DNA of 64,000 nucleotides from a virus, in IMG/VR virus record IMGVR_UViG_3300042945_002173. One strand, given 5' to 3'. The notes beneath the pieces were generated by a model. The model was not told the origin of the DNA, searched no databases, and was given only the letters and a program-made list of their open reading frames with translations. The stretch's first letter is position 1; each line of letters begins with the position of its first letter. The translations under genes were made by a program, and so were the position numbers. Positions 315 to 14,896 of this stretch are shown here, piece after piece.

Positions 315-338
315 TACAAGGTAATCAAGGGAACCACA

Positions 339-497: not shown

Positions 498-500
498 TTC

Positions 501-931: not shown

Positions 932-1239
932 TTGGATTGATCGCTGGTTTGACGTGTGGAATCGCTACATACTACGGTGTTGGTGATGGTTTCCATGGAC
1001 AAACAACCGCTAATGGTGAACGGTTTGATGCTTATCGTTGGACTGCAGCTCATCCTTATCTTCCTATGGGTACGAGGATTCGGGTAACCAATCAGGATAA
1101 TCTCAAACAAGTGATTGTGAGAGTGAATGATCGTGGTCCATATTCTCATGCAGATCTAGATCTATCCTATGCTGCATTTGCACATATTCAATCTCCCCGC
1201 AAGGGTAACGCCACTATTTGTTATCGTGTAATCGGATGA
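928..1239 (+). CDS. RlpA-like double-psi beta-barrel lytic transglycosylase
   Basis: ATYYG..FHGQTTANGERFD, TAAHPYLPMGT, VRVNDRGP, DLS motifs. Confidence 0.85.
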   Translation: MIGLIAGLTCGIATYYGVGDGFHGQTTANGERFDAYRWTAAHPYLPMGTRIRVTNQDNLKQVIVRVNDRGPYSHADLDLSYAAFAHIQSPRKGNATICYRVIG

Positions 1240-1610
1240 AAAAACTTCTTTTTGCTGCTGCGATTCTGTTCTCTGCACCAGTTTATGCACAACAGTCACC
1301 AACGAATTATCAACCATTTCGTTATGAAACATCTTGTGCTCTGATGTATGAGGGTGAACCAATGACGGATCTGTGTGTGGTGATTGAAACCCGTGAAAAA
1401 GGTGGAGCACTTCGCACTCGTAATATCTTTTCAAATCGATTCAGTCTGACGATCAAAGGAAGATTTGATAAGCAGAAAGGTTATATGACCTGGGATTCTC
1501 ATAATAAGTATGAATATAAATGGGACTATAAGATCGGTCAGGTTGGAGAACTTGGTGTCTGGTCTGAGGTTATGCCTAGTTTTTATTTGCAAAACGTAAG
1601 TTGGGATTGA
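1236..1610 (+). CDS. Hypothetical exported protein
   Basis: MKKLLFAAAILFSAPVYA signal peptide; start at the ATGA overlap. Confidence 0.7.
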   Translation: MKKLLFAAAILFSAPVYAQQSPTNYQPFRYETSCALMYEGEPMTDLCVVIETREKGGALRTRNIFSNRFSLTIKGRFDKQKGYMTWDSHNKYEYKWDYKIGQVGELGVWSEVMPSFYLQNVSWD

Positions 1611-1613
1611 ATA

Positions 1614-1823
1614 ATGAAAATTACAGAAGCAACAGTTAATTTAAATGTACATGAGATGGGTGTGATTCTTTCTGCACTGCAAAATCTTGAAAATGCAGAT
1701 GAACATCGTATTGCCAGAGAATATGGCAGTGTGCCAGCACTTTATGATAAACTCTATTCCTACTGGGAGCAGATGGACAGATCGCAAACTGGACTACGGT
1801 ACGATGTGGTGCCCTCCTTCTGA
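1614..1823 (+). CDS. Hypothetical protein
   Basis: ORF track, operon packing. Confidence 0.7.
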   Translation: MKITEATVNLNVHEMGVILSALQNLENADEHRIAREYGSVPALYDKLYSYWEQMDRSQTGLRYDVVPSF

Positions 1824-1856
1824 GGTTATAATACAAAGGTAATCGGGACACACCCA

Positions 1857-2117
1857 ATGCAAACGCCTCAACTGACCAGCAAGGACGGCAATATGGTGGT
1901 TGACTTCTATCCCGTCAAGACTCCTTATGGTGATATTTCTGAAACTTGGGTACTTCGTACAGTCACCTTTGCTCCTCACGGTCAAGTGTCAAAGAAGTTT
2001 CTCAACAAAGTAGAAATGCTGTTGGACATCCGTGAGCGTGTGGCATACGGTTACAATCAAACGGGTGATAACTCCAATCTTCCCCAACTTGGAAATCCGA
2101 TGGCAGGTGCCTGCTGA
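1857..2117 (+). CDS. Hypothetical protein
   Basis: Preceded by degenerate dyad (1773-1796) and TATAAT (1827). Confidence 0.7.
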   Translation: MQTPQLTSKDGNMVVDFYPVKTPYGDISETWVLRTVTFAPHGQVSKKFLNKVEMLLDIRERVAYGYNQTGDNSNLPQLGNPMAGAC

Positions 2118-2263
2118 TGAAAACTTCTTATTGGTTTCTTGGTATCATTGCCATTCTCATGTGGAACGGAATGATCATCAAACGTGATCAAGAACTGTTC
2201 AAGGCATATGATAAGGTCTGTGCCGAACTTCCCTCTCATCCTCATTGCCATCTTTCCAAATGA
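2117..2263 (+). CDS. Small membrane protein (MKTSYWFLGIIAILMW...)
   Basis: Read manually; overlaps both neighbours; TM helix plus two Cys. Confidence 0.6.
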   Translation: MKTSYWFLGIIAILMWNGMIIKRDQELFKAYDKVCAELPSHPHCHLSK

Positions 2264-2442
2264 ACGACGAAGACATTCAACAATTTATGAATGCATTTGA
2301 TGATTTTATGAAGCATTCTGAGGTTGAGCAATTTAATCATGATGCCTGGTTGATTGCTAAACAATACACTGATCATTTTTATGAGCAGAAAGCAGCAGAA
2401 CTGGAAGTGACTGTTGATTATTACATTCAGGAGTTTGTATGA
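2260..2442 (+). CDS. Hypothetical acidic protein
   Basis: ORF; ATG at 2260 overlaps the upstream stop. Confidence 0.65.
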   Translation: MNDEDIQQFMNAFDDFMKHSEVEQFNHDAWLIAKQYTDHFYEQKAAELEVTVDYYIQEFV

Positions 2443-2609
2443 ACGATCAAACCAAATTCATTTTTGCACTTATGCAGATTGAGAACATTTCAAATCTCAT
2501 CACAGGAAATGAATATGAAAGGTTCTTTGCTTCACATCTCATTCCAATCAAAGTTGAACTGGAAAGGCAATTGACAAATCTCACTCATTCCTCTAAAATT
2601 AAGGAGTAA
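2439..2609 (+). CDS. Hypothetical protein (MNDQTKFIFALMQ...)
   Basis: Read manually; ATGA overlap. Confidence 0.6.
   Translation: MNDQTKFIFALMQIENISNLITGNEYERFFASHLIPIKVELERQLTNLTHSSKIKE
2571..2599 (+). promoter_or_regulatory. Sigma70-type promoter
   Basis: TTGACA-N17-TAAAAT upstream of ORF 2623. Confidence 0.7.
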
Positions 2610-2622
2610 TTTAGAAATACTA

Positions 2623-2853
2623 ATGAAATCACTTTACATTGTTGACTACTGGGTTCCGTTTCCTTCTTCTGAATATGGTGGTGTTGTATCACTAATCGCT
2701 GAGAATGATACGGAAGCATTCCAACTCCTTGCCGATGAAGATGGTTTTGATGACAGTTATCAGAATCTAATCATGCCCAATGTCGTCAAGGCACAGAAGT
2801 TCAAACTTGTGGATGATTATGAATCTGGTATTATTGATGCATTTACCACCTGA
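2623..2853 (+). CDS. Hypothetical protein
   Basis: ORF with AGGAG upstream. Confidence 0.7.
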   Translation: MKSLYIVDYWVPFPSSEYGGVVSLIAENDTEAFQLLADEDGFDDSYQNLIMPNVVKAQKFKLVDDYESGIIDAFTT

Positions 2854-2858
2854 TAATT

Positions 2859-3029
2859 ATGGAAGAAAGACTCTATCGCATTGAAGAACTTTGTACAACT
2901 GGTTGGGAACTGGTTGAAGAAAAGTATGTTAATATGACAAAAGAACGCACTCAGGAAGTTTTAAATCAACTGATTGCCGATGGTTATAATCCTAATACAT
3001 TACGTGCCGTACCCAATCCACAAAAATGA
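2859..3029 (+). CDS. Hypothetical protein (MEERLYRIEEL...)
   Basis: Read manually; fills the gap and overlaps the next start. Confidence 0.65.
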   Translation: MEERLYRIEELCTTGWELVEEKYVNMTKERTQEVLNQLIADGYNPNTLRAVPNPQK

Positions 3030-3304
3030 TTGAGTTTCCTCATAAACCACCAGCAGGTTATTCTTATGAACAAGTTCCATTTAAACGTAATGTTATTGCA
3101 ATCTGGATTCATAATCATTACAGGTTTGTTTACAATGGCGGTGGGATTACTCGTAGCATCTGGGGATTCTACAATCTCAAAACCAAGTGCTTCCACTCTC
3201 CTATCAACGCCAAAACAGTCGGTGATCAAGTAAACATTGAACAAACAACTCCATACTCTGCTATGATACCTAAACTCTCACCTCTCGAACTTGCTTATGT
3301 CTAA
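3026..3304 (+). CDS. Hypothetical protein
   Basis: ORF track, operon packing. Confidence 0.7.
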   Translation: MIEFPHKPPAGYSYEQVPFKRNVIAIWIHNHYRFVYNGGGITRSIWGFYNLKTKCFHSPINAKTVGDQVNIEQTTPYSAMIPKLSPLELAYV

Positions 3305-3545
3305 GTATAGTCCACGCCTGAATGATTATGTTCAATGGAAGAAAGGTGTCGAAGGATGGGTGTATTTTGTTGATAAAGAATATATCACCATCGAAACCAA
3401 CGTCCGCCCAAAAGATCAATTCAATGTCCAGGCGTGTTCTATTCATAAGAATGAAAGGTTATTGGTACTTTGTTACAAGGAACAGTGGAATGAATTAACT
3501 TATGTCGGACATCGTGTTGATCAGTATTCAACTACAATCATATGA
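3297..3545 (+). CDS. Hypothetical protein
   Basis: ORF track; ATG at 3297. Confidence 0.65.
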   Translation: MSKYSPRLNDYVQWKKGVEGWVYFVDKEYITIETNVRPKDQFNVQACSIHKNERLLVLCYKEQWNELTYVGHRVDQYSTTII

Positions 3546-3787
3546 AACAGAAGAGAACAGTATGGAGATGGTGGGCAAAAGCATTAGGAGAGAAGGCAAG
3601 TAAATGTGACAAAGAATCAGACCACATTGCTATTATACGTACTGTTATATTCAGTACTTATCTCATTACTAATCTATTCATTATTGCAGGCGTAATTCGA
3701 CATTGGAACAAAAATGAAATACCAGGTTGTATACTACAAATTGAAGAAGGACCAGAAGAAAGCGAAACAAGAAGCAATCTTTTATAA
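3542..3787 (+). CDS. Hypothetical membrane protein
   Basis: WRWWAKALGEK followed by a TM segment. Confidence 0.65.
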   Translation: MKQKRTVWRWWAKALGEKASKCDKESDHIAIIRTVIFSTYLITNLFIIAGVIRHWNKNEIPGCILQIEEGPEESETRSNLL

Positions 3788-3866
3788 TATTGAAGATGCC
3801 TCACTCTGGGAGCAACATATTAAGGAACAAGGTTATGTAAATTCTGAGATTGTACCAATCTTCTAA
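3714..3866 (+). CDS. Hypothetical protein (MKYQVVYYK...)
   Basis: Read manually; overlaps the 3' end of the previous ORF. Confidence 0.5.
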   Translation: MKYQVVYYKLKKDQKKAKQEAIFYNIEDASLWEQHIKEQGYVNSEIVPIF

Positions 3867-3891
3867 ATACAAAAAAGATTTCCAAGAAACA

Positions 3892-4095
3892 ATGAAGACG
3901 TTTGCACAATTAATGGAACAGATTCATGGTCCAGTAAATCGAACGGAAGTTGCGCTCGCAAAGACCAGAGCAAACATTGCCTCAGAGCGTCTTCGCAGAA
4001 GGCGTCAGTATCAACAAGGTCTTCATACGACGATGCACTTAAATCAGACCGCAGAAAAGGAAGACAGAAAAAAAGCAGAAGTTTATAATACCTGA
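3892..4095 (+). CDS. Small basic protein with capsid-targeting-like N-terminus
   Basis: MKTFAQLMEQ start; CTAAATA late-like promoter about 25 nt upstream. Confidence 0.55.
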   Translation: MKTFAQLMEQIHGPVNRTEVALAKTRANIASERLRRRRQYQQGLHTTMHLNQTAEKEDRKKAEVYNT

Positions 4096-4137
4096 TTAAC
4101 CGCAAAACCTACATTGGAATCTCCGCTGTTGTTACAT

Positions 4138-4947
4138 TCATTTGTTATAAAACCAGTAATATCCTTTCCAACTATAATGCCCAGGATTGCGTAAACTTTT
4201 AATCAATCCGGTACCTTTACCAGAGCCACCTAATACTCTCACAGCATCTGCAATAGATTCATAACGGGCACTTATTTCACCTGTTTTTTTATTTACAGCA
4301 AATACCGATTTCTTTTTAGATTTGTCTTCTAAGATCTGCCACTTGTGTCCATAGGCAGTACCATCTTTTCTGGCAGCAAGTAGAATATTACTATTTTTAT
4401 TCGGATCACCAGTAAGAGATAATGCTGCCATACGAGCATTCTCATAGTCAGTACAGATTCCAGTTTCTAAATTCTTTCCACGTATTGGAAGACCACAATG
4501 TTTTCCATTACCTCTGTTCTCTTCTGTAAGAGCACCCCAAGGTTCTATCTTTGCTTTTGTAGTTAATGCAATAGATATGTTTTCAATATGTTCTGATGTA
4601 AGTATCTTTTGCTTTGCTTTTTCTGTTATTTTTTGTTTTGTTTCTTCACTGAATATTGGACGTTCACCACCACTTGTAGCATTATATCCTTCTTTAAATG
4701 TATTATGTTGTTTGATCCAATATTCTTCTCTTTCATTTAATAAACTCTCATCACATTCATCTATTTCTTTAATCATGAAGTTGTGATTGCCATATTTACG
4801 CATGGCACGATGTAGGGGTTTATCACTCATTCTTATTGCTTCTTGTATGTGTTGTTGCCACCTTTTATTCATTCCTTGGGTGGTCTGACCAACATACTTG
4901 TGCCCGTTTTGCTTGTTGATAATTAGGTAGATGATTCCCTGTGCCAT
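4138..4947 (-). mobile_element. Free-standing GIY-YIG homing endonuclease with NUMOD-type C-terminal DNA-binding repeats
   Basis: GIIYLI...YVGQT, RW..H, LNEREEYWI, GYN..SGG; opposite strand to neighbours. Confidence 0.85.
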
Positions 4948-5082
4948 TGATATGATATGCTACATTCTTTATATATTGTACATAACGATTAAAATATAAT
5001 ACATAATGGTGAATTTAAAAAAGTTAAAATTATTGTATGGTGTAGTTAATGTTATATTAAATTATTGTGTGTGTTTTATAAT

Positions 5083-5111
5083 ATTCTCAATAATTATTGT
5101 TTATTGAGAAT
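5083..5111. repeat. Inverted repeat ATTCTCAATAA-N7-TTATTGAGAAT (copy 1)
   Basis: Perfect 11-bp arms; second copy at 5788-5817. Confidence 0.8.
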
Positions 5112-5158
5112 CAATTAGGTATTATGTTGAGAATACCCAGATCTTATGCAAGCTTAGC

Positions 5159-5187
5159 ACGTTAGCATAAGGAGCGCAGTTTGTCAA
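5159..5187 (-). promoter_or_regulatory. Sigma70-type promoter facing the GIY-YIG gene
   Basis: Minus strand TTGACA-N17-TAACGT. Confidence 0.5.
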
Positions 5188-5238
5188 GTCCGCCGCCCGC
5201 GAAAATTTCCCGAGACCCCACACAAGACTTATAATGCC

Positions 5239-5267
5239 TTGACAATCTTATAAGTTCGTGATAGAAT
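5239..5267 (+). promoter_or_regulatory. Sigma70-type promoter reading into the repeat cluster
   Basis: TTGACA-N17-TAGAAT. Confidence 0.7.
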
Positions 5268-5513
5268 CTCGACGAGTTATGTTACGAGATGCACATAAAT
5301 TCGACGAGACATCATATATATTGGTATGAATCTCGACGAGACCTATATCTAGACTAGATTGCATCTCGACGAGTTTTATGCTACAATACGAAAGCGTTCA
5401 CAAATCTCGACGAGCTTATGTACGACGACTACGATCTCGACTACACATACACAGGCAACGATTACGCGGATCTCGACGAGTATTATGCACGAGATACACA
5501 GGATCTCGACGAG
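5266..5513. repeat. Cluster 1 of ATCTCGACGAG interrupted palindromes
   Basis: Copies near 5266, 5299, 5330, 5363, 5404, 5434, 5470, 5503, spaced 30-41 bp. Confidence 0.85.
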
Positions 5514-5570
5514 GATTATGCGCGAGATGGGCAAGATTACGAATCACTTGCATATCGTCATTATGCATGA
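5418..5570 (+). CDS. Asp/Tyr-rich 50-aa protein (MYDDYDLDY...)
   Basis: Read manually; promoter TTGCAT-N17-TACAAT at 5359-5387. Confidence 0.6.
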   Translation: MYDDYDLDYTYTGNDYADLDEYYARDTQDLDEDYARDGQDYESLAYRHYA

Positions 5571-5601
5571 TATAATCTAGACACATCGCATCTAGACACC
5601 T

Positions 5602-5754
5602 ATGCTAGCACAAAAGCGCATTGTACAGGTTACACTAGACATTATGTGTTATGATGATCTAGATCTAGATCATATTAATTGGCGAGAACTATTACAACTC
5701 GAACCGAATGAAGATCTCCATTGTAGGGTGAAAGAGTTCGATCCATTCGATTAA
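5602..5754 (+). CDS. Hypothetical 50-aa protein (MLAQKRIVQVTLDI...)
   Basis: Read manually; promoter TTGCAT-N17-TATAAT at 5548-5576. Confidence 0.65.
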   Translation: MLAQKRIVQVTLDIMCYDDLDLDHINWRELLQLEPNEDLHCRVKEFDPFD

Positions 5755-5787
5755 TGTGACAGTTCTTGAATTGGCACAAGATCCCCT

Positions 5788-5817
5788 ATTCTCAATAAGG
5801 GGTTTCTTATTGAGAAT
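5788..5817. repeat. Inverted repeat ATTCTCAATAA-N8-TTATTGAGAAT (copy 2)
   Basis: Same arms as 5083-5111. Confidence 0.8.
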
Positions 5818-5824
5818 GAATATT

Positions 5825-5886
5825 TTATGGCAGGGGGAGTGGCGATGTATTGTCGTCAGCAGGGATACCCTTCCCCTCATTAGATT
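5825..5886. ncRNA. Candidate structured small RNA, three-way junction (copy 1)
   Basis: Homologous to 10081-10143 with a compensatory change; minus-strand promoter TTGATT-N17-TATCTT at 5921-5893. Confidence 0.5.
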
Positions 5887-5892
5887 TCTTAT

Positions 5893-5988
5893 AAGATAGC
5901 AGAGCATTAATCCCAAATCAAGGGGAATTGTGCCAGTTCTCCTAGTGGCACAAGGGGGGTTGTAATCTGCCGCCGAGCGGGTTATGTT
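5893..5988. promoter_or_regulatory. Divergent promoter pair around the TGTGCCA-N10-TGGCACA dyad
   Basis: Dyad 5929-5952 with a -35 hexamer 7 bp from each arm; both spacers 17 bp. Confidence 0.65.
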
Positions 5989-6013
5989 GGTTTCGTTCCT
6001 GAGGGATTGCTCA

Positions 6014-6217
6014 ATGGTTCTTCTCACTGCCACAAACTACGGTTGCGTTTTTACTCTTTCTCAGGAAGATGGTGATGAATTGTATTATGCTCCGATTTAT
6101 GCTGATGGTAGTGTAAATCTTGGTGAATTTGCGCCAGTTGATATGGATAGCGCAGATATGGATCATATGGAACTTTTTGATATCAGAAACCAATTGCGTG
6201 AGATGGTGGAGGTGTGA
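6014..6217 (+). CDS. Hypothetical acidic protein
   Basis: ATG after TTCGTTCCTGAG leader. Confidence 0.65.
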   Translation: MVLLTATNYGCVFTLSQEDGDELYYAPIYADGSVNLGEFAPVDMDSADMDHMELFDIRNQLREMVEV

Positions 6218-6296
6218 CGGTTTAACAAGTGGCACAAGGGGGGTTGCAATGCCCCCCATCCCCTGATACATTACATTCGTTCCTGAGACACCGACC

Positions 6297-6770
6297 ATGC
6301 TGACTGGCAACGCACTGCTGATCAAGGTTAACGAAATGCAGGCACAAAACCCGCCTGCTAAGATGTCTGAAATCGTTCGTGCCTGTGGGTATGAACTGGA
6401 AGGCAAACTGAAGTATACTCAATTCTACACTGAGTTGCTGACTGTCAAAGGTATCCTGAACAATGATACTTTGGAGAATGAAATCTCTGAGGAGAATCAG
6501 GATCTGTATGCCGAACTGTGTAACCGTTATGGTTCGGATGCAATCGATGCATTCCTGGAACTCTATGATGAAAATGATCTGGGTAATTTTGAAGATGCCT
6601 ATCAGGGTCGTTATGATTCTGAGGCAGCATTTGCAGAGGAAATCACCACTGATTGTTATGGTTTGAACGTTCCTTCGTTCGTGATCATTGACTGGCAAGC
6701 AACTTGGGATCAGGGTCTCTATTATGACTATGATTTCGTGGATGGTTTCGTGTTCAGCAAGAATTGGTAA
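6297..6770 (+). CDS. Picocyanobacterial AbrB-like N-terminal domain fused to an ArdA-like antirestriction domain
   Basis: MLTG..LL.KV..SEIVRACGY..FYTELL..KG followed by acidic FEDAYQGRYDSE.AFAEE...IDWQATW...YDY..VDGFVF. Confidence 0.6.
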   Translation: MLTGNALLIKVNEMQAQNPPAKMSEIVRACGYELEGKLKYTQFYTELLTVKGILNNDTLENEISEENQDLYAELCNRYGSDAIDAFLELYDENDLGNFEDAYQGRYDSEAAFAEEITTDCYGLNVPSFVIIDWQATWDQGLYYDYDFVDGFVFSKNW

Positions 6771-6935
6771 TCTCGACTAGATGATATCAAGATCTCGACG
6801 AGACATACACAATTCGTCGAGATCGCATATACGATATACACATCTCGACGACATATACACACGATATTATAATCTCGACGCACATACACATACGTATCGA
6901 GATGTGCAAGAATACGTGACACATTCTCGACACCC
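6770..6935. repeat. Cluster 2 of ATCTCGAC(GAG) motifs with CA/TA-alternating spacers
   Basis: Copies near 6770, 6792, 6813 (reverse), 6842, 6872, 6897 (reverse), 6925; no credible ORF. Confidence 0.8.
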
Positions 6936-7032
6936 ACCCACCACGTGAGCTCGCCTTATGTGCAAGAATATGTGCTTCACCCCACTCACCCCTTCCCACA
7001 CCATCTAGATGTGCTTTTTATATTCTTAGACT

Positions 7033-7056
7033 AATACCCCTTCGGGGTATTGTTTC
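7033..7056 (+). terminator. Hairpin, possible intrinsic terminator
   Basis: AATACCCC-TTC-GGGGTATT followed by GTTT. Confidence 0.5.
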
Positions 7057-7114
7057 ACATCTCTTTAGTATATCTTATAGAGTCTAGATTCTTATCTTCA
7101 ATGGGAACAAAGGT

Positions 7115-7210
7115 ATTCTAATCAATATTTTGAGTACTGTCAAGCCCCTGTGGTCCAGTTCGTGAAGTGGTACAAGATCGGTTGCAATCCGATGATCCCC
7201 CTGATAAATT
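7115..7210. promoter_or_regulatory. Divergent promoter pair around a dyad variant
   Basis: Minus TTGACA-N17-TAGAAT (7143-7115); dyad TGGTCCA-N10-TGGTACA 7151-7174; plus TTGCAA-N17-TAAATT. Confidence 0.65.
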
Positions 7211-7233
7211 ACATTCGTTCCTGAGATTTCGCC

Positions 7234-7392
7234 ATGACTGAGGTTAAAGTTCGGGTCGAAACTAACGACGGTTGCGTGACATTTTGGTATGAAAAGTCCA
7301 GAGTCAAGAATCCCACCGAAGTTGTGTGCAATCGTGTCACTGAACAGTTAATGGGTCTTAACATTAAAGAGGTGAGTGTGACAGTCGCCTAA
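7234..7392 (+). CDS. Hypothetical 52-aa protein (MTEVKVRVET...)
   Basis: Read manually; leader shared with ORF 6297. Confidence 0.65.
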   Translation: MTEVKVRVETNDGCVTFWYEKSRVKNPTEVVCNRVTEQLMGLNIKEVSVTVA

Positions 7393-7460
7393 GTGCCACA
7401 TCGGTGCTTGCTAAGCACCTCCCCCCGTGCCATACTACGTTTGTTCCTGAGAGACACACC

Positions 7461-7589
7461 ATGTTTGATGAACTCTGGCAAGAGATTCAAGATGCTCCTG
7501 GTGAGATCTTTGACATTCCCGAACTTCGTGATCTGGATGATGACAAGTTCGATGTCAATGACTACATCAACGGAAACTACGACTACTGA
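7461..7589 (+). CDS. Very acidic 42-aa protein (MFDELWQEIQD...)
   Basis: ATG after dyad, promoter and leader. Confidence 0.65.
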   Translation: MFDELWQEIQDAPGEIFDIPELRDLDDDKFDVNDYINGNYDY

Positions 7590-7786
7590 TGTTGTTTCAA
7601 GTCACCGCAATCGAGTTTGATTTTGATGAGGATGATGACTTTCCCGAGCATCAATTCTCTAACATTACCGATGAAACGATTGGTATGATTTGGGAAGCAG
7701 ATGATGAAGATGATCTAGTTGAAGAGATCACATGTGCCACAGGTTGGTGCATCAAATCCATTGATTATCGTCACGTTCTGAAATGA
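7589..7786 (+). CDS. Acidic hypothetical protein
   Basis: ORF track; coupled to neighbours. Confidence 0.7.
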   Translation: MLFQVTAIEFDFDEDDDFPEHQFSNITDETIGMIWEADDEDDLVEEITCATGWCIKSIDYRHVLK

Positions 7787-7983
7787 CCAACAATGCACCC
7801 TATGGTTGCCAAACCTATAAGGATCTGCTGGTCATGTTACAATCTATGACAGCAGAGCAGTTGGACTGCACTCCGACAGTGTATGATCCTGATGCGGATG
7901 AGTATTATCCCATCACAACACTGCTCACCGCATCTGACACCAACGACGTGTTAGACTCTGATCATCCTTACCTTTCCTTCTGA
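7783..7983 (+). CDS. Acidic hypothetical protein
   Basis: ORF track; coupled to neighbours. Confidence 0.7.
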   Translation: MTNNAPYGCQTYKDLLVMLQSMTAEQLDCTPTVYDPDADEYYPITTLLTASDTNDVLDSDHPYLSF

Positions 7984-8174
7984 TGAACCGTTCTGAACTT
8001 CAAGATGCTTTCATTCTGCAACTGCTGGATGACATGGATCTCAAAACAATGACCCAACTCTGTTATGATTATCTGGATGAGGGTTATGCTAAGTATTCTG
8101 ATGAAGAATTGCTCAGTGAGTGTAATGAATACTATCCCGAACTGCTAGGCGATCCTGCCGTGTCGGACGGTTGA
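7983..8174 (+). CDS. Acidic hypothetical protein
   Basis: ORF track; coupled to neighbours. Confidence 0.7.
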   Translation: MNRSELQDAFILQLLDDMDLKTMTQLCYDYLDEGYAKYSDEELLSECNEYYPELLGDPAVSDG

Positions 8175-8243
8175 GCAAGTGGCACACAGGGGGTTGCGAG
8201 CACCGTGCCCCCGTGCCATACTACGTTCATCAGCAAACAACCA

Positions 8244-9143
8244 ATGCAAAACAAGCACCAAGAGCACCCCGAAGACACCATCCTCACGGGCGACCTTTCC
8301 GTTCTGGATTGGTTCACTGCTGCTGGCGCTCTGAGCGTTAAGATCGACGGTGCCCCTGCAATCGTGTGGGGCACTGATCCTGCAACGGGTACGTTCTTCG
8401 TGGGCACTAAGGCAGTATTCAACAAAAAGAAGATTCGTATTGCTCACTCTCACGATGAGATTGACCAGCATTATGAAGGCAATGTAGCAGACATTCTTCA
8501 TTCGTGCTTTGATTATCTGCCACGCACCGAGTCTATCATTCAGGGTGACTTTATCGGGTTTGGTGGTGAAACTGAATACACTCCGAACGTGATCACCTAT
8601 AAGTTCGGTGATGTAGTTTCGCAACGTATTATCATCGCACCTCACACCTATTATGAAGCAAACGATGACCTTCGTGATAGTTGGGCATTGCCCCTGATGG
8701 TGAATCTGCAAAGCGATGATGACGTTCTGTTCGTGAAACCTGATGCCTACATTGTACACAATCAGACCTCATTCGCTGATGTAAAAGAGGTTTGTGATTT
8801 CGCTCGCCAGATGTCAACTGCGTGTGAGTTCGTTTCTAACAAAGAAGCAGCAGAGATCAAAAAGCAAATTAACGCCTGCATTCGTGCGGGTGAAGAGATC
8901 AATCCTGAGGACTTCGATTGTGACACTAACCTGATGCGTTTGTGGGCATTGGTGAAGTCAATCAAAGATGACTGTTTGTTCCTCTGCCGTAACAATGGTC
9001 CTGCTGCTTATCTCTACGGCAACAGAATCGACGCTGAGGGTTATGTGATGACCAATGAGTTTGGTATGTTCAAACTGGTCAATCGTGAGGTCTTTTCTAA
9101 CGCTAACTTCAACCACGGACGCTTTCAGTGTGCCAATCGTTGA
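8244..9143 (+). CDS. DUF6267-like protein with RNA-ligase/nucleotidyltransferase-like motifs
   Basis: HxEHPED, SVKIDGAPA (KxDG), IIQGD, EGYV, FKLV. Confidence 0.55.
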   Translation: MQNKHQEHPEDTILTGDLSVLDWFTAAGALSVKIDGAPAIVWGTDPATGTFFVGTKAVFNKKKIRIAHSHDEIDQHYEGNVADILHSCFDYLPRTESIIQGDFIGFGGETEYTPNVITYKFGDVVSQRIIIAPHTYYEANDDLRDSWALPLMVNLQSDDDVLFVKPDAYIVHNQTSFADVKEVCDFARQMSTACEFVSNKEAAEIKKQINACIRAGEEINPEDFDCDTNLMRLWALVKSIKDDCLFLCRNNGPAAYLYGNRIDAEGYVMTNEFGMFKLVNREVFSNANFNHGRFQCANR

Positions 9144-9209
9144 AGTGGCACAAGGGGGATTGACTCCCCCCTTCTCACCCTTTATAGTAACTTCAGTTCA
9201 ATCAAACCA

Positions 9210-9776
9210 ATGGAAACCTTCCTCGAGACTTCCTTCCAGAATGTACGTTCTTCAAAGCGTACAGATGAGTTCCACAAGGTGCTTTTAGATGAGGTTCTGA
9301 ATGCAAACCCTCAGTGGGCAGAGTATGACTGGCAGTATGAATACCAACTGCCCGTAGACGGTTTCGGAGGCACCTTTGACATTGACATTGCTGGGTTTGT
9401 TGATAGTCAACTTAAAGTTGCAATTCTTGGCAAAGCACTCAACAGCAACATCAACAAAAACATCAAAAATTATGCTAACACCAGTGTAGGCGAAGCGGCA
9501 CGTTTGATGTACGCTCCTGACATCATCCTGGAAAAAGTGCTGTTCGTGAGTGTTCTTCCCCGTGTGGCACCTCGCTTCAACAAAGCAGGCGAAGTTCAGG
9601 GATTCGATGACGTTGTGGGTGCCAAAGAGCGCACTAAGATTAACACCGTTTTGCAGTTCCAATACGGTGGCAAAGTAGAGGCAATCGACCTGTTCTTTGA
9701 CATTGACAATGTTAAAGTTCTGACTGAGTTCAACACCGTTAGCATCAGCAACCTGGATCCGCTGGTGCTGGTGTGA
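9210..9776 (+). CDS. Putative PD-(D/E)xK restriction-endonuclease-like protein
   Basis: EY.LP...FDIDIA...VAILGK..NSNINKNIKNYAN...GE; promoter TTGACT...TATAGT. Confidence 0.4.
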   Translation: METFLETSFQNVRSSKRTDEFHKVLLDEVLNANPQWAEYDWQYEYQLPVDGFGGTFDIDIAGFVDSQLKVAILGKALNSNINKNIKNYANTSVGEAARLMYAPDIILEKVLFVSVLPRVAPRFNKAGEVQGFDDVVGAKERTKINTVLQFQYGGKVEAIDLFFDIDNVKVLTEFNTVSISNLDPLVLV

Positions 9777-9854
9777 CGGTTCAGGGGGTGGCACACGCTG
9801 CCCCCATCCTGCTCCGCTGTGCCTTTATACTGATCTCAGTTCAGACAAAGACCG

Positions 9855-10028
9855 ATGACCCGCTACGACGTGATCTGCCCTTCCGCTCCCTGGGAGAACA
9901 CTACCACTGATGAGGATCGTGCCTACGACCTCTGCTATTCTCTGAGCGAGGACTACGGTTACGCTGAGATTCGCCAGAACGGAATGGTCATCGCAGACTA
10001 TGGCAACCCTGCCACCTTCCTTGGTTGA
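9855..10028 (+). CDS. Cassette protein, 57 aa (MTRYDVICPSAPWEN...)
   Basis: Read manually; ATG after the leader. Confidence 0.75.
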   Translation: MTRYDVICPSAPWENTTTDEDRAYDLCYSLSEDYGYAEIRQNGMVIADYGNPATFLG

Positions 10029-10034
10029 CACTAA

Positions 10035-10060
10035 GGGGAGCAAATACGCTCCCTTTTTTT
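10035..10060 (+). terminator. Intrinsic terminator
   Basis: GGGAGC-AAATAC-GCTCCC followed by a T run. Confidence 0.8.
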
Positions 10061-10080
10061 ATACTTTTCTTTTTTTTATT

Positions 10081-10143
10081 TTATGGCAGGGGGCGTGGCG
10101 ACCGTTTTCGTCATCAGGGCTACCCCGCCCCTTCTTCGCTTGT
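10081..10143. ncRNA. Candidate structured small RNA, three-way junction (copy 2)
   Basis: Homologue of 5825-5886; minus-strand promoter TTGCTG-N16-TATACT at 10177-10150. Confidence 0.5.
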
Positions 10144-10263
10144 GACCTCAGTATAGGGCCGCGGCAATCCCCAGCAACCACTGCTGTGCCAGTTCCCGAA
10201 CCGTCCACCAAACCGCCCACTGCCCCCCTGATGCCCTATACTGATCTCATGAAACAAACCAAG

Positions 10264-10413
10264 ATGACTCACGACGAACTGATCGCTAGCGTGATGGCAG
10301 AGTACACCGCCAAGGTCAACCGTGAGGAAGCATACCGCCAAGCGGTGCGCCGTGGTGAGATCGCTCCCCCTCAGGTCCAATCCACCAACTGGAACATCAG
10401 CGACCGCCATTGA
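10264..10413 (+). CDS. Cassette protein (MTHDELIASV...WNISDRH)
   Basis: ATG after the leader; alternative start at 10249. Confidence 0.7.
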   Translation: MTHDELIASVMAEYTAKVNREEAYRQAVRRGEIAPPQVQSTNWNISDRH

Positions 10414-10454
10414 GCGGCGCTGCCCTTAGAATGACCTCAGATCAAACGAACCCC

Positions 10455-10595
10455 ATGATCCGCTACGAAGTCCGCTACCAGGTGCCCTACAACCAGTGTG
10501 AGTGGCGCTCTCAGTTCTTCCGCACCTATGATGAGGCGATGCGGATGGTAGAGTTCTACCGCTCCTGTGGATCCCCTGCTCACCTGGCACCATGA
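10455..10595 (+). CDS. Cassette protein (MIRYEVRYQVPYN...)
   Basis: ATG after the leader. Confidence 0.7.
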   Translation: MIRYEVRYQVPYNQCEWRSQFFRTYDEAMRMVEFYRSCGSPAHLAP

Positions 10596-10759
10596 TCAAA
10601 GCACTGACCCGCTCCCGTTCCCCTGAGTTTCACCGCGCCACCATGCTGCGCCTCCTGATCACCGCTCTGCTGCTCTGGGGATTCTGGGAACCGCTGCGCC
10701 CCATCCGCAATGTGACAGCTCAGGCACTGGACACCGCTGCCGACCTGATCGCCCGCTGA
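10592..10759 (+). CDS. Small membrane protein (MIKALTRSRS...)
   Basis: Read manually; ATGA overlap; TM segment. Confidence 0.65.
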   Translation: MIKALTRSRSPEFHRATMLRLLITALLLWGFWEPLRPIRNVTAQALDTAADLIAR

Positions 10760-10792
10760 CCCTTTATACTGATCTCAGTTCAGACGACACCG

Positions 10793-10963
10793 ATGATCGA
10801 CCTCCTAAACCGCGTGGGGATCGTTGCCCTTGCTCTGCTCTTCATTGTGGGCGGCGCCCATCTGGCGGCTCAGGGCAATGCCCACCGCAACGCTGAATGT
10901 CGTGCTAACGGTGGCAAGGTGGTTGTCTTTCAGAATCGGCCGCCAGGGTGTGTCCTGCCCTGA
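10793..10963 (+). CDS. TM-anchored two-Cys cassette protein, paralog of 13485
   Basis: Read manually: TM plus GNA....C...GG.V.......C. Confidence 0.7.
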   Translation: MIDLLNRVGIVALALLFIVGGAHLAAQGNAHRNAECRANGGKVVVFQNRPPGCVLP

Positions 10964-11054
10964 ACCCAGTGCCGCCGGCGGCACTGGCACACTGAACCAC
11001 ATGGACCCCCTCCCTGACCCCCTATACTGATCTCAGTTCACAAGCGAACCCACC

Positions 11055-11306
11055 ATGAAAGTTCAGCAAGTCGGTAGCAACCAAACCGAAGTGACCCTGG
11101 CAGACGGGACCTGCATCCTGTTCTCCTACGATCAACCCGTCGCCGCCATCGTGCCTGGCAAAGGGTGGATTCGCACCGCTCAGCAGTGGAGCGCCACCAC
11201 CACCAAGCATGTCAACGCCTGGATTCGCAAGCATCGCGGCAACTACGTCATCGGTGAGGTTGCCAGTGTGCCACAATGGGATCTGGACCAACTGGTGGCG
11301 TTCTGA
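11055..11306 (+). CDS. Cassette protein, 83 aa
   Basis: ORF after the leader; LFSY..PVAA...WS.TT.KH.N.W. Confidence 0.75.
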   Translation: MKVQQVGSNQTEVTLADGTCILFSYDQPVAAIVPGKGWIRTAQQWSATTTKHVNAWIRKHRGNYVIGEVASVPQWDLDQLVAF

Positions 11307-11353
11307 GGGGCGCCACCCCCTACAATACTCTCAGATCAGAGGAACCCCCCCCG

Positions 11354-11551
11354 ATGAAACTCTCCAAAAAGCAAAGGATTGTCGCCGTTCCTATTATCAT
11401 TGTTCTGGCAATTCCTGCTATTCTCCTAAAAGTTGCGACGGAGATTTTCTACATCCTCTCCAACATTTTTGGGGCATCTGCTGATAAATTGGAGAAACTA
11501 AATCTTGCTTGGGGTGAACAGTTTCAAACCTTCATCAAGACTGTCTTGTGA
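11354..11551 (+). CDS. Cassette membrane protein, AT-rich relative to neighbours
   Basis: ATG after the leader; TM segment. Confidence 0.65.
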   Translation: MKLSKKQRIVAVPIIIVLAIPAILLKVATEIFYILSNIFGASADKLEKLNLAWGEQFQTFIKTVL

Positions 11552-11630
11552 CAGTCCAGCAAGTGGCACAAAGCACCGCCGCCTGACCCCCTGACCCCTT
11601 ACAATACTTTCAGTTCACAAGCAACCGACC

Positions 11631-11807
11631 ATGACCTACGCTCAGATCACCGCTTCCAACCTCAGCGCCTCCGCTGCCCGCTCCGCGATCTGTGATCTGG
11701 CAGATCAGTTCTCCTGGGAGACCGTCGCCCGTGAGATGCTCTCCCGCATGTCAGGTGATGAGGCACGGGAGTTTGTGGAAGACTTCCAGCGCCTCTATGC
11801 CGACTGA
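11631..11807 (+). CDS. Cassette protein (MTYAQITASNL...)
   Basis: Read manually. Confidence 0.75.
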   Translation: MTYAQITASNLSASAARSAICDLADQFSWETVAREMLSRMSGDEAREFVEDFQRLYAD

Positions 11808-11881
11808 GGCACTGGCACACGGGGGGCACCAACCCCCCACCCCCGACCTGCTATACTGATCTCAGTTCAAACGACCCGACC

Positions 11882-12067
11882 ATGAAAGTTTACGCCGTTA
11901 TCGCTGGTGAGGATTATGCGGGGCAGGACTTCGATTCCCTGCGCCTGTTCGATTGCCTCTCCGCTGCCCAAGCATACGAAAAAGAACTGCAGCAGCAGTT
12001 CGGCGTAGACTATACCCTGCTGGAGGTGCGGGAGGTTTGCATGGAATCCGCTCTCTGTGCCGCCTGA
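11882..12067 (+). CDS. Cassette protein
   Basis: ORF after the leader. Confidence 0.75.
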   Translation: MKVYAVIAGEDYAGQDFDSLRLFDCLSAAQAYEKELQQQFGVDYTLLEVREVCMESALCAA

Positions 12068-12142
12068 GGCACTGGCACAAGGGTCCTGAGCACCGACCCT
12101 AAACTGCTCTACAATTCTCTCAGTTCACAACCCGAACCGATC

Positions 12143-12349
12143 ATGCGCTACAATCCCGCCACCGATCGCGCCCTGAGCATTGATGAGATCGCCGCGCAGT
12201 GTAAGGCAGCGATCATGAAGGCATCCGCTCCCGCTCCTGCTCCCTGCTCCTGGGAGGATGTTGCTGCCCTGGAGGATGATGACTTCTACGCTGAGAACCC
12301 TGTTCTCTGGGGATTCGCCTGGGAGAATGATCTGATGATCGCCGCCTGA
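12143..12349 (+). CDS. Cassette protein
   Basis: ORF after the leader. Confidence 0.75.
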   Translation: MRYNPATDRALSIDEIAAQCKAAIMKASAPAPAPCSWEDVAALEDDDFYAENPVLWGFAWENDLMIAA

Positions 12350-12355
12350 TACAAT

Positions 12356-12412
12356 GGGAGCGGGAGCGCCTACGGCGGAACGCCTACGGCGTTAACGCCC
12401 TTAAAGACTCCC
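12356..12412 (+). other. Structured leader with twin CGCC-TAC-GGCG hairpins inside a GGGAG/CTCCC stem
   Basis: Direct reading. Confidence 0.5.
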
Positions 12413-12445
12413 ACACCAAACCACAACCCACAATCCTAGCACACC

Positions 12446-12577
12446 ATGTCCCGCGAACTTGCCCTCTCCCTGCTCCGCTCTGGCAACGACGGCGCTGAGA
12501 TCCTGCAGATTCTGGAAACGATCGCCGCCGATGATGGCAGCGACGCAGAACCCACCCTAGAAGAAATCCAATTCTGA
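12446..12577 (+). CDS. Acidic cassette protein (MSRELALSLL...)
   Basis: Read manually. Confidence 0.7.
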   Translation: MSRELALSLLRSGNDGAEILQILETIAADDGSDAEPTLEEIQF

Positions 12578-12647
12578 TAGTGGCACAACGGAGGGGGACA
12601 CCCCTTCCCTTTTGCCTCTATACTGATCTCAGTTCAGACAAAGACCG

Positions 12648-12794
12648 ATGACCGACTTCTTCGCTTCCTACCTCTCTGACCTCTCCGCTCTGTCGGGTGC
12701 TGACCTCTCCTGCCTGCTGTGCGACGCCGTCGACTTCGATGACGATGCTGCCTTTCAGGTGATCATCGCTGAGATGCAGGCACGGGGCATCTGA
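12648..12794 (+). CDS. Cassette protein (MTDFFASYL...)
   Basis: Read manually. Confidence 0.7.
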   Translation: MTDFFASYLSDLSALSGADLSCLLCDAVDFDDDAAFQVIIAEMQARGI

Positions 12795-12828
12795 TCTGCT
12801 ACAATACTCTCAACAGCAACGGACCCCG

Positions 12829-12990
12829 ATGCCTTCCTTCCGCGTTGTTACCACCGATGAGATGCCAGAGGTCCTGGGAGAGTTTCCCAACCTGGCATAT
12901 GCCGATATGTTTGCTGAGGCACTGATGCACCAGAGATGCCAACGCTCAACCGTCGAGCATTGGGATGGCAGGGAATGGGTTTCCCTCTGA
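12829..12990 (+). CDS. Cassette protein (MPSFRVVTT...)
   Basis: Read manually. Confidence 0.7.
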   Translation: MPSFRVVTTDEMPEVLGEFPNLAYADMFAEALMHQRCQRSTVEHWDGREWVSL

Positions 12991-13029
12991 CCCGCGACCT
13001 GCTACAATACTCTCAGTTCAGACAACCCC

Positions 13030-13218
13030 ATGCACTGCACCACCTTCCCCGCCATCGTTTGGAACTGCGCCGATGAGAACGGGTGCATCCGCTGGTCCGC
13101 CGCCTGCCAGGCAGCAAAGGATCATGGTCTGTGGGATGACTTCCGCACCGACTATGGCACCACCGCCCGCTTCGGTCCCGTGGATGCGGGTGAGTTCCTT
13201 TCGTGGTTGGGGTATTGA
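13030..13218 (+). CDS. Cassette protein, DAGExLxWLGY family, copy 1
   Basis: Paralog of 14965 and 15226. Confidence 0.8.
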   Translation: MHCTTFPAIVWNCADENGCIRWSAACQAAKDHGLWDDFRTDYGTTARFGPVDAGEFLSWLGY

Positions 13219-13267
13219 CCCCTGCCCCCTTCGTGCTCTACAATTCTCTCAGTTCAGACAAAGACCG

Positions 13268-13450
13268 ATGACCCGCACCCTGACCGACGACCTCCTGGAC
13301 CTGGCAACTGCCATCGCTGCTGAGATGTATGGTTGCGATCTGGATCGCCTGGACCCTGAGGACCTGGCATGGTATGCTGACCGCACCGACGCAGACAACC
13401 TGGAGGAGATGGCAAACGACCTTGCTGCTGCCGCCTGGGAATCCTACTGA
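13268..13450 (+). CDS. Acidic cassette protein (MTRTLTDDLL...)
   Basis: ATG after the leader. Confidence 0.75.
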   Translation: MTRTLTDDLLDLATAIAAEMYGCDLDRLDPEDLAWYADRTDADNLEEMANDLAAAAWESY

Positions 13451-13484
13451 TCTGCTACAATACTCTCAACAGCAACGGACCCCG

Positions 13485-13661
13485 ATGCAAACTCTCAAAG
13501 CAACCGCCATCGCCCTCCTGGTCATCACGCTGGCGACCGCTGGATACGCTGCCCTGCTCCACAATGGCAACGCCCGCATCGAAGCCAAGTGCGCCGCTCA
13601 GGGTGGGCAGGTCATCACCGCCCCTGGTGAGATCAGCCGCTGCCTCCGCCCTGCCCGCTGA
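13485..13661 (+). CDS. TM-anchored two-Cys cassette protein, paralog of 10793
   Basis: ATG after the leader. Confidence 0.75.
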   Translation: MQTLKATAIALLVITLATAGYAALLHNGNARIEAKCAAQGGQVITAPGEISRCLRPAR

Positions 13662-13698
13662 TCTGCTACAATACTCTCAACCGACACCTCCCCCACCG

Positions 13699-13866
13699 AT
13701 GACCAACCACACCTGGGCCGACAACGCGATGCGCTGCGCCGCTGCCCGCGCTGCCGCCCTGCGTCCCTTTGAGCACGAGTCCTGGGCACACTACCGTCAG
13801 CAGCGGGAGCGGGAGACTCTGACCGCCCTGTGGCATCTCTACTGGGATCATGAGGTCGCCTTTTGA
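13699..13866 (+). CDS. Cassette protein (MTNHTWADN...)
   Basis: ATG after the leader. Confidence 0.7.
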   Translation: MTNHTWADNAMRCAAARAAALRPFEHESWAHYRQQRERETLTALWHLYWDHEVAF

Positions 13867-13898
13867 CCTGCTATAATTCTCTCAACCGCAACGGACCC

Positions 13899-14111
13899 AT
13901 GACCCTCACCCTCCAGGACCTGACCTTTGAAGAACTGGAATCGCTCTGGGATGACTGCCAGCGCAACGGCGACTATGACTTTCAGGATCGCCTGCTGCGG
14001 GAGATGCTCACCCGTGAGGATGCCTGCCCCGAATCCTATGACCTGCTCTGGGAGATGCAGGATGCAGGATGGAACGGTGGGGTCACTCAGGAGGACAGGG
14101 ACGCTCGCTGA
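13899..14111 (+). CDS. Acidic cassette protein (MTLTLQDLTFEE...)
   Basis: ATG after the leader. Confidence 0.75.
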   Translation: MTLTLQDLTFEELESLWDDCQRNGDYDFQDRLLREMLTREDACPESYDLLWEMQDAGWNGGVTQEDRDAR

Positions 14112-14180
14112 ACCGTCCACCTAGGGGCATCCTGCCCCCCTGCCGACCTGCTACAATTCTCTCAGTTCAGACAAAGACCG

Positions 14181-14384
14181 ATGACCAAAGCACAAGCGAT
14201 CGAAACCCTCTCCGCTCAGTTCAACGCTCCCTACGGCGGGACCTTCATCTCCGCTCTGAGCGGTGACCTGATTCAGGACATCATGATGGAGGGTGACATG
14301 GGCAAGACCTTCCACCGCTTTGGTAAGACCATTGTGGAAGACTCGAGTCTGATCGGTCTGGCACGCTACTACCAGACCCACTGA
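14181..14384 (+). CDS. Cassette protein
   Basis: ORF after the leader. Confidence 0.75.
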   Translation: MTKAQAIETLSAQFNAPYGGTFISALSGDLIQDIMMEGDMGKTFHRFGKTIVEDSSLIGLARYYQTH

Positions 14385-14391
14385 ACCCTAC

Positions 14392-14427
14392 GGGGCAGGT
14401 TGACCCCTGCCCCCGACCTGCTATACT
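14392..14427 (+). promoter_or_regulatory. Stem-loop promoter with -35 TTGACC as the loop of GGGGCAGG/CCTGCCCC
   Basis: Identical units also at 14903, 15164, 15426; TG-extended -10 TATACT. Confidence 0.8.
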
Positions 14428-14450
14428 GAACACGTTCACACCTGAACCCG

Positions 14451-14633
14451 ATGACCACCACCACCATCGACGGCATTCAATTCAAGGTCACCCGCCTGCC
14501 CGTTGCCCATGGCGCTAGCGCCAACCGTTGGGCATCCCGAATCAAAGGCGGTTCCTCCCGTGTTCGCACTGGTGCTGGTTCCCGATCGGTTCACCAGAGC
14601 ACCAAGGCAACCGCTCTGCAGGACGTTCGCTGA
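14451..14633 (+). CDS. Basic cassette protein
   Basis: ORF after the leader. Confidence 0.7.
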   Translation: MTTTTIDGIQFKVTRLPVAHGASANRWASRIKGGSSRVRTGAGSRSVHQSTKATALQDVR

Positions 14634-14671
14634 CCTGCTATACTGATCTCAGTTCACAACCCGAACCGACC

Positions 14672-14896
14672 ATGACCGATCCCACCCCCCTGCAGACGAT
14701 CCTTTCCCCCATCCGCTACCCGTTCGCGGTGGCGTTCGTGAAGGGCGATAAGATCGCCCGCACCCTTGCCTACGCCAGCACCCTGGAGGACTGCTACTTC
14801 CAGGTCCAGGGATGGCGCAGCGCCTATGGCAGCGCCGACTACATCATGGCAGAGCAGCAGGAGCGCAGCGGCAAGTCTTACTGGGTTGCCGTTTGA
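14672..14896 (+). CDS. Cassette protein (MTDPTPLQTIL...)
   Basis: ATG after the leader. Confidence 0.7.
   Translation: MTDPTPLQTILSPIRYPFAVAFVKGDKIARTLAYASTLEDCYFQVQGWRSAYGSADYIMAEQQERSGKSYWVAV

Follow-up and report, generated by a model that had tools for sequence, protein, structure and literature searches.

A stretch of viral DNA of 64,000 nt, IMG/VR record IMGVR_UViG_3300042945_002173 (the whole stretch is referred to below as the window), contains two copies of a short intergenic element. Each copy is, with a probability that we put at about 55%, a minus-strand gene for a non-coding small RNA that would run antisense to all of its neighbours. The copies lie at 5825-5877 and 10081-10133, exactly where a preliminary description had placed them as a duplicated three-way junction behind divergent promoters free of open reading frames (ORFs). 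They are real copies of a non-coding cassette of ~95 bases common to many T4-like cyanophages. The element is assigned to the minus strand because its covarying hairpin contains G-U, and not A-C, pairs on that strand and because the minus-strand -10 box is 100% conserved.

Judged by its genes, the window is a T4-like cyanomyovirus: its large ORFs match T4-type gp6, gp8, tail sheath, portal, scaffold, major capsid protein and large terminase, and its DNA resembles that of Synechococcus and Prochlorococcus myoviruses, with S-SRM01 as the best match. The 21-nt core of the element, TTATGGCAGGGGGNGTGGCGA, is found twice in the window as against none expected from 100 shuffles, and a covariance model gave both copies 84.6-84.7 bits (E ~1e-20), with no significant score in the rest of the window. 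Along the plus strand the order of parts is a hairpin (67% of members have a T-run after it), an AT-rich tract, the invariant core tATTTTAT-GCAGG-N4-GTGnCGA, a spacer of ~15 nt, a second hairpin with the conserved loop TACCCY (at times GACCCT or TACCTC; RGGGUA on the minus strand), a spacer of variable length containing TTGT and, finally, the box tAnnnTA. Conservation ends past the box on one side and at the upstream hairpin on the other. The exact core was recovered from 35 IMG/VR contigs and a looser core pattern from at least 118; an nhmmer search with the family profile returned 191 hits in 139 loci, mostly IMG/VR contigs, with 145 unique elements. A search against Rfam 15, proposed in the preliminary description, gave no match at the gathering score over the whole window, no family overlapping the elements at E up to 10 within 5500-10500 on either strand, and no match at E up to 1 on either strand of seven related loci with ~12 copies. 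The element family is conserved and lies outside Rfam.

The covarying hairpin and its strand

Structure was tested on 101 distinct homologues chosen for a 4-bp stem, and on a profile-based set of 142 elements chosen without the stem. The helix that emerged is formed by alignment columns 45-48 with 55-58, corresponding on the minus strand to GGGGA-AGGGUA-UCCCU at 5861..5876 in copy 1 (five pairs including one G-U) and to GGGGC-GGGGUA-GCCCU at 10116..10131 in copy 2. Its four inner pairs are Watson-Crick in 101/101 sequences, with three to four pair types per position and 149 double substitutions, a count that weighs less than its size suggests because the sequences share a phylogeny and it exceeds the number of independent events. 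The covariation score was 0.693, compared with 0.121 after shuffling (reached in 0/500 shuffles) and at most 0.144 when partners were slid. The stem filter introduced little bias, since only 12/103 viral-contig sequences failed it, and ~9 of those 12 were genuine copies whose closing pair is mismatched or whose loop is a variant, and in which the stem still forms. The stem-independent profile set, with 35 distinct stems among its 142 elements, gave the same picture. Mutual information and RNAalifold found no other helix on either strand, and none that covaried with any part of the invariant core.

The covariation anticipated in the preliminary description is thus present in one short hairpin and absent from the stems of the junction that it had proposed. 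Over the 101 homologues the junction was 72.2% paired, compared with 71.2% in shuffled controls, with a covariation score of 0.112 versus 0.102, and it did no better than slid controls. Stem P2 showed zero compensatory changes and had one pair broken in 57/101 sequences, P3 (GGG/CCC) overlaps and competes with the covarying helix, and the outer stem did not covary. The A-T to C-G change that had been read as compensation in the outer stem involves as its T/G partner the closing base of the real hairpin (GGGA/TCCC versus GGGC/GCCC), and the outer pairing is broken in homologues such as L024, L026 and L021. The case carries a caution, in that two copies hinted at a three-way junction and 145 copies revealed another helix, on the opposite strand.

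The strand of the supported helix is indicated by its wobble pairs. In the minus-strand reading, pairing at positions 1-5 of the helix holds in 141-142/142 elements; at pair 5, 93 elements have G-U and 49 have G-C or some other Watson-Crick combination, and at pair 1, 9 have G-U. The plus strand shows A-C mismatches at these G-U positions, and its five inner pairs contain no G-T at all. The change at pair 5 is one-sided, from U to C opposite a constant G, which is a classic signature of an RNA helix on the minus strand. The earlier argument that G-U pairs favour folding of the plus strand is therefore reversed for this helix.

Promoter and predicted transcript

Minus-strand promoters with starts near 5886 and 10143 had been proposed, and both are borne out by the sequence and conserved family-wide. 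The minus-strand -10 hexamers are TATCTT (5893-5898) in copy 1 and TATACT (10150-10155) in copy 2, each belonging to a -10 box: the symmetric TAAGATA at 5892..5898, which gives the minus hexamer from 5898 to 5893 and the plus hexamer TAAGAT, and CAGTATA at 10149..10155, which gives a good minus hexamer and a poor plus hexamer, CAGTAT. Promoter columns were taken from a hidden Markov model alignment built without reference to the box. In that alignment A76, T80 and A81 are each present in 139/139 and T75 in 84%, so that as a minus-strand hexamer -12T, -11A and -7T are all 100% conserved, and the predicted minus-strand +1, 11 nt downstream of -11A, is A in 141/145 elements. The plus-strand hexamer is without its -12T in 16%, and the start predicted for that strand is unconserved. 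Between box and hairpin loop there are 18 to 32 nt, mostly 21-32, a range that fits an RNA leader; a DNA site phased with the -10 box would not tolerate such variation.

The two predicted starts, at columns 69 and 87, are exactly 18 bp apart. Symmetric bidirectional bacterial promoters have the form TAnnnTA, in which -11A of one strand coincides reciprocally with -7T of the other and the starts are separated by 18 bp; transcription of an mRNA from one arm is often paired with that of a non-coding RNA from the other (Warman et al. 2021; PMC10268837). The box, characterised here from sequence features, agrees with that pattern in its three 100% conserved columns, its 84% T75 and its 18-bp spacing. 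In contrast to the divergent RNA of such promoters, which is usually an unconserved by-product, the non-coding arm of the element is the better conserved of the two and carries conserved structured sequence.

The predicted RNA would measure ~70 nt if counted as far as the core's end, or ~105-120 nt if it ended at the upstream hairpin. On family conservation, the copy 1 transcript is placed at 5780..5886 (minus), from the start to about the end of the shared hairpin, and that of copy 2 at 10030..10143 (minus) on family conservation and fold, the 3' end being uncertain in both. Apart from 5' and 3' hairpins the predicted RNA would be unstructured, the 5780..5886 transcript folding into the 5' hairpin and a 12-bp 3' hairpin. 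Terminator scans located the upstream hairpin at 5787..5818 in copy 1, where it ends the plus-strand operon and may end the minus-strand RNA too, and at 10033..10056 in copy 2, as the terminator of the upstream operon with its T-run on the plus strand. Its sequence is conserved from freshwater to marine phages in one subfamily, and that of copy 1 is retained in the marine members L039 and L109. Between the two hairpins lies the invariant core, at 5821..5845 in copy 1 and 10077..10101 in copy 2 (minus; repeat family D19), which reads UCGCCAC-N4-CCUGCCAUAAAAUA and is the proposed single-stranded seed.

The element is free of ORFs, as had been stated: neither strand has a conserved ORF, homologues have ATT, ATC, TTG, TTT or GTG in place of ATG, and indels of 1-6 nt break every frame. 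Protein coding was considered, since the core ATG-GCA-GG opens ORFs of 18-20 codons in both copies, and was rejected because the ATG is unconserved and indels shift the frame; a micro-ORF on the minus strand of copy 2 is likewise not conserved. A 5' leader of minus-strand genes was also set aside, the downstream minus-strand ORFs being mostly shadows of plus-strand genes, or else a distant homing endonuclease. From the earlier proposal of a ~60-nt small RNA, an ORF-less RNA from a minus-strand promoter and outside Rfam was retained, and the ~60-nt length, the three-way junction and the CCA end were lost; the transcript would instead measure ~70-110 nt, and the one structure supported for it is the 5-bp hairpin, after which comes the invariant, unstructured 3' half. 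The small-RNA idea survives because the promoter is conserved family-wide and the G-U signature is strand-specific. Among the features expected of a base-pairing small RNA, promoter, stem-loop and unstructured invariant region are all present; the 3' hairpin is U-tailed in only 18-33% of members.

This last figure is one of several observations that weigh against a minus-strand RNA. The upstream hairpin is optimised for the plus strand, on which it makes a good terminator in 67% of members, and the scarcity of a U-tail on the minus strand leaves the minus-strand 3' end undefined; transcription might continue, in antisense, into the upstream gene. No conserved -35 motif was found on either strand; picocyanobacterial promoters are often without one. 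The copies in the window fold better on the plus strand (z -2.4 and -2.75, versus -1.7 and -1.9 on the minus strand), which explains the model first put forward and counts modestly against the minus-strand reading, and family-wide folding shows no thermodynamic strand preference (-1.3 versus -1.5). The G-U signature would also be compatible with G-T pairs in single-stranded DNA of the minus strand, an alternative that is less natural than RNA given G-U pairs. Finally, seed matches in the window were at chance level, with no complementary site beyond the element itself.

On balance we infer that an RNA is produced, that it ends near the upstream hairpin and that it acts by base pairing. A sigma-70-type promoter consisting of a -10 hexamer would start transcription at the conserved A, near 5886 and 10143. 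The RNA would begin with ACAAUC or ACAAGC, form one 5-bp hairpin with the loop RGGGUA, continue through the invariant unstructured stretch into an A-rich tract, and probably end around the hairpin that serves the upstream plus-strand operon as terminator. In most members the symmetric box could also fire rightwards into the downstream operon, here with an ArdA-like gene, so that RNA and operon would be co-expressed. The invariant single-stranded 3' half would then pair with a target, making the RNA an early phage-encoded riboregulator. The seed is complementary to UAUUUUAUGGCAGG...GUGGCGA, which resembles a translation start region, and we propose the base-pairing step only tentatively. Whatever the function of the RNA, the ~150-bp cassette of terminator, RNA and promoter serves as a patch of homology for module exchange between related phages. 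Taken together, these steps would describe a new and widespread cyanophage small-RNA family, housed in a mobile terminator-RNA-promoter cassette and co-fired with early anti-defence and ORFan operons, whose seed silences a conserved host or phage mRNA during takeover and whose cassette drives gene shuffling among freshwater and marine Kyanoviridae; that the whole of this combination holds is rather doubtful.

Control of early transcription in T4-like cyanophages is still unclear. Were the small RNA real, it would be a conserved RNA of more than 100 environmental cyanophage contigs and three cultured phage-host systems, directly testable, and would add a regulatory layer beside anti-restriction and ORFan genes. 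The cassette marks recombination boundaries and could explain the reshuffling of hyperplastic, ORFan-rich cyanophage regions, a role so far shown only for promoter-early stem-loop (PeSL) cassettes of enterobacteria and vibrio phages.

Alternative readings and known systems

The PeSL cassettes of T4-type phages span ~50-60 bp and consist of a stem-loop with a -35/-10 promoter immediately behind it (Arbiol et al. 2010, PMC2839356; Comeau et al. 2014, PMC4122927). They are undescribed in cyanophages, a study of S-PM2 having found few candidates. As with the PeSL, the element is a short conserved intergenic cassette with a terminator-like stem-loop and a sigma-70-type promoter, repeated in hyperplastic regions at the edges of shuffled gene modules. 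In contrast to the PeSL, however, its hairpin and -10 box are ~100 bp apart and separated by a conserved 70-bp insert with a covarying hairpin, it has no -35, and its best-conserved promoter faces the opposite way. In gene shuffling the cassette thus behaves like a PeSL, although it falls outside the PeSL definition.

This likeness underlies the leading alternative, in which the element is a DNA-level regulatory cassette for the plus-strand genes and a cyanophage relative of the PeSL, the box being the -10 of the downstream operon and the 80 bp upstream (core and inverted repeat) a site, binding or structural, for a factor of host or phage. A plus-strand terminator precedes the cassette in 67% of members, downstream genes are co-oriented (genes to the right of the box point away from it in 96 cases versus 5), the plus hexamer TAnnnT is intact in 84%, tandem copies stand at module boundaries in hyperplastic regions, and the few back-to-back pairs resemble divergent promoters. 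Yet an inverted repeat with 35 unrelated stems offers no sequence-specific dimer site, its distance from the box differs between members by as much as 14 bp and is unphased with the helix, and A81 (plus -6) is 100% conserved without a role in a plus-strand promoter. Duplex DNA, moreover, does not explain the asymmetry between A-C and G-U, and in copy 2 the plus hexamer is poor and a separate TATACT promoter, at 10237-10242, serves the gene that follows. We consider this alternative unlikely.

A plus-strand 5' leader RNA, starting at GCAGG from an nAnTAT just upstream and acting in cis on polymerase or mRNA, is improbable. It could, for example, be an antiterminator that takes RNA polymerase past the intergenic hairpins of the operon in the manner of HK022 put or lambda nut. 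These are likewise conserved linear sequences with a small conserved-loop hairpin, found in few copies at the heads of early operons; they act, however, on the sense strand downstream of the promoter, whereas the strand signature of the element is antisense to the operon, and the element shows no sequence similarity to them and no Rfam match. An nAwTAT hexamer does stand 6 nt before the invariant GCAGG, with the spacing kept in S-SSM7, at the head of multi-gene, hairpin-filled operons, and the two copies of the window fold well as plus-strand RNA. Against this, the plus strand has A-C mismatches where the minus strand has G-U, only the 4-bp core helix is supported on it, the 100% conserved tAnnnTA box is left roleless, and conservation of the AT-rich stretch is ambiguous because the stretch doubles as the U-tract of the upstream terminator.

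An origin of replication resembling T4 oriF/oriG can be given even less credence. Here a minus-strand RNA would form an R-loop in the 25-35 bp AT-rich tract that follows directly on the core and prime the leading strand, or the hairpin would act as minus-strand single-stranded DNA. The order of promoter, conserved transcribed segment and nearly pure A/T tract would suit such an origin, as would one to a few copies per genome and, for a DNA hairpin, the G-T pairs. It would be odd, however, for origins to cluster up to four within a few kb, every one of them bound to a gene cassette; the AT tract is largely the T-run of the terminator, no iteron or helicase-loading signature was seen, and T4 origins are not known to have a conserved transcribed sequence or hairpin. 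As for the ~60-nt three-way-junction RNA of the preliminary description, a tRNA mimic or decoy with a CCA-like end, both window copies can fold so on the plus strand (-21.8 and -22.6 kcal/mol, with z-scores of only -1.8 and -1.3), but it is already refuted by the comparative data above, the GCCA end being C, A, G or T at that position across the family, the hairpin loop having 6 nt and not 7, and ARAGORN finding 0 genes.

Other candidates were rejected more directly. An N4-type promoter has a stem of 5-7 bp, a 3-nt loop and a fixed distance from the start, and goes with a virion RNA polymerase gene. An N4-type DNA-hairpin promoter was dismissed on the 6-nt loop and the distance of 18-32 nt to the box, and the giant ORFs of the window were taken to encode baseplate or fibre proteins; the larger, of 4127 aa, carries no domain but YHYH and is surrounded by T4-type baseplate genes. 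A sigma-54 promoter, an NtcA box and a T4 late promoter were excluded by inspection for misfits of spacing or sequence, the minus strand reading ATAAAATA and not the ATAAATA of a T4 late promoter. A pseudoknot between the GGGGG run and the loop ACCCC was discounted because the G-run changes to TTCG, ATCG, GTGA and others while the loop is constant, with no mutual information. A general early promoter of cyanomyoviruses was rejected too: a covariance-model search of Syn9, P-HM1, P-HM2, P-RSM6 and S-CRM01 gave no convincing copy, and genomes with the element have one to four.

A novel regulatory element of Syn9 early genes, abundant in genomes and metagenomes, was reportedly described by Doron et al. 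2016 (ISME J). According to the abstract of that study, the motif is likewise long, conserved, non-canonical, associated with transcription and found in T4-like cyanophages. The two can be compared by description only: our covariance model has no copy in Syn9 at E up to 1, and a genome holds one to four copies of the element, as against reportedly one Syn9 motif per early transcription unit. The RNA CfrI, of ~225 nt and present in a single copy, lies antisense to psbA and to a gene for a homing endonuclease. Like CfrI, the RNA predicted here is non-coding, antisense to neighbouring genes and encoded in a T4-like cyanophage; the element is set apart, by description and not by sequence or structure, in being intergenic, multi-copy and widespread. 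Few non-coding RNAs are known for T4-like cyanophages, those named in the literature consulted here being CfrI, PhotoRC-II, wcaG, manA, glnA and abiF, and CfrI is named as an antisense RNA of cyanomyovirus S-PM2 in PMC9964418.

Distribution and gene neighbourhood

In cultured phages the element occurs twice in S-SRM01 (88,583-88,681 and 90,135-90,231; host Synechococcus KCZYC6), once in DSL-LC03 (82,226-82,321) and once, in diverged form, in the marine S-SSM7 (50,919-51,004; host WH8109), in each case in unannotated intergenic DNA. Two to four copies were present at 44 loci, mostly in tandem, 0.6-4.9 kb apart and up to four per locus, with a few back-to-back pairs. In two such pairs the elements stand 65-75 bp apart (L046 6853-7118 and L095 2214-2467), and the predicted RNAs of minus-strand type would run towards each other into a short spacer with hairpins of its own. 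Host chromosomal copies were looked for and discarded, the looser pattern giving 61 matches in bacterial genomes versus ~69 by chance, of which only ~5 were genuine. These lie in short (1.3-7.9 kb) phage-like contigs (L142, L157, L188, L190 and L198) binned to unrelated metagenome-assembled genomes of Bacteroidetes, Nanopelagicaceae, Lishizhenia, Weeksellaceae and Poseidoniales, and are almost certainly mis-binned cyanophage contigs.

The element is not linked to any one gene family, since the ORFs that come first downstream form more than 15 unrelated clusters, most of them without a known function (ORFans). Downstream of copy 1, and divergent from the predicted RNA, an operon at 5984..10028 (plus) contains small ORFans, a DUF6267 gene (8205-9143) and, as second gene after the copy, an ArdA-like anti-restriction protein of 157 aa (6297-6770, plus), which matched PHROG 36653 at E = 9e-17 and Pfam ArdA at E = 1e-4, below the cut-off. 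Convincing genes of the window lie on the plus strand throughout, the sole convincing minus-strand gene of the region being a GIY-YIG homing endonuclease at 4138-4947, ~0.9 kb to the left of copy 1.

Both copies lie within a hyperplastic region of tiny ORFs at 1-18,000. The GC content rises stepwise at both, from 38% to 44-48% near 5.8 kb and to 57-60% between 10 and 16 kb, and is 30-35% elsewhere. These steps match the modules beside the element in relatives of the window (L011, L066, L017 and L136), where the adjoining genes are reordered or replaced. The 6-kb island at 10000-16000, with 57-60% GC compared with 30-35% in the rest of the genome, is packed with tiny plus-strand ORFs; its left edge is exactly element copy 2, it ends near 16.0 kb, where homology to relatives resumes, and it has the look of a module acquired recently.

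At least 15 copies of a second cassette occur at 9814-15760 (for example 14897-14967, 15158-15228 and 15420-15490), ahead of almost every small gene. It consists of TTGACC-N16-TATACT (or TACAAT), a conserved leader GATCTCAGTTCACAAGCAACCGACC and then ATG, and its copies look like PeSL-type promoters distinct from the element studied here. Intergenic palindromes, TGTGnCnGTT-loop-nGTGGCACAAGG, often followed by a GC hairpin, were seen at 257-278, 5755-5779, 5929-5953, 6213-6237, 8163-8187, 9130-9151, 9772-9796 and 11547-11571, and may be operators, processing sites or 3'-end hairpins because their sequence is conserved and not covarying. A 33-nt repeat, GGATCTCGACGAGnATTATGC... (repeat family D14), is present three times at 5361-5533 (plus) within small ORFs just upstream of copy 1. 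The giant ORFs mentioned above, at 21318-33701 (plus, 4127 aa, YHYH domain) and 35299-42921 (plus, 2540 aa, DUF4815), lie between the baseplate genes gp6 and gp8 and presumably encode baseplate or fibre proteins.

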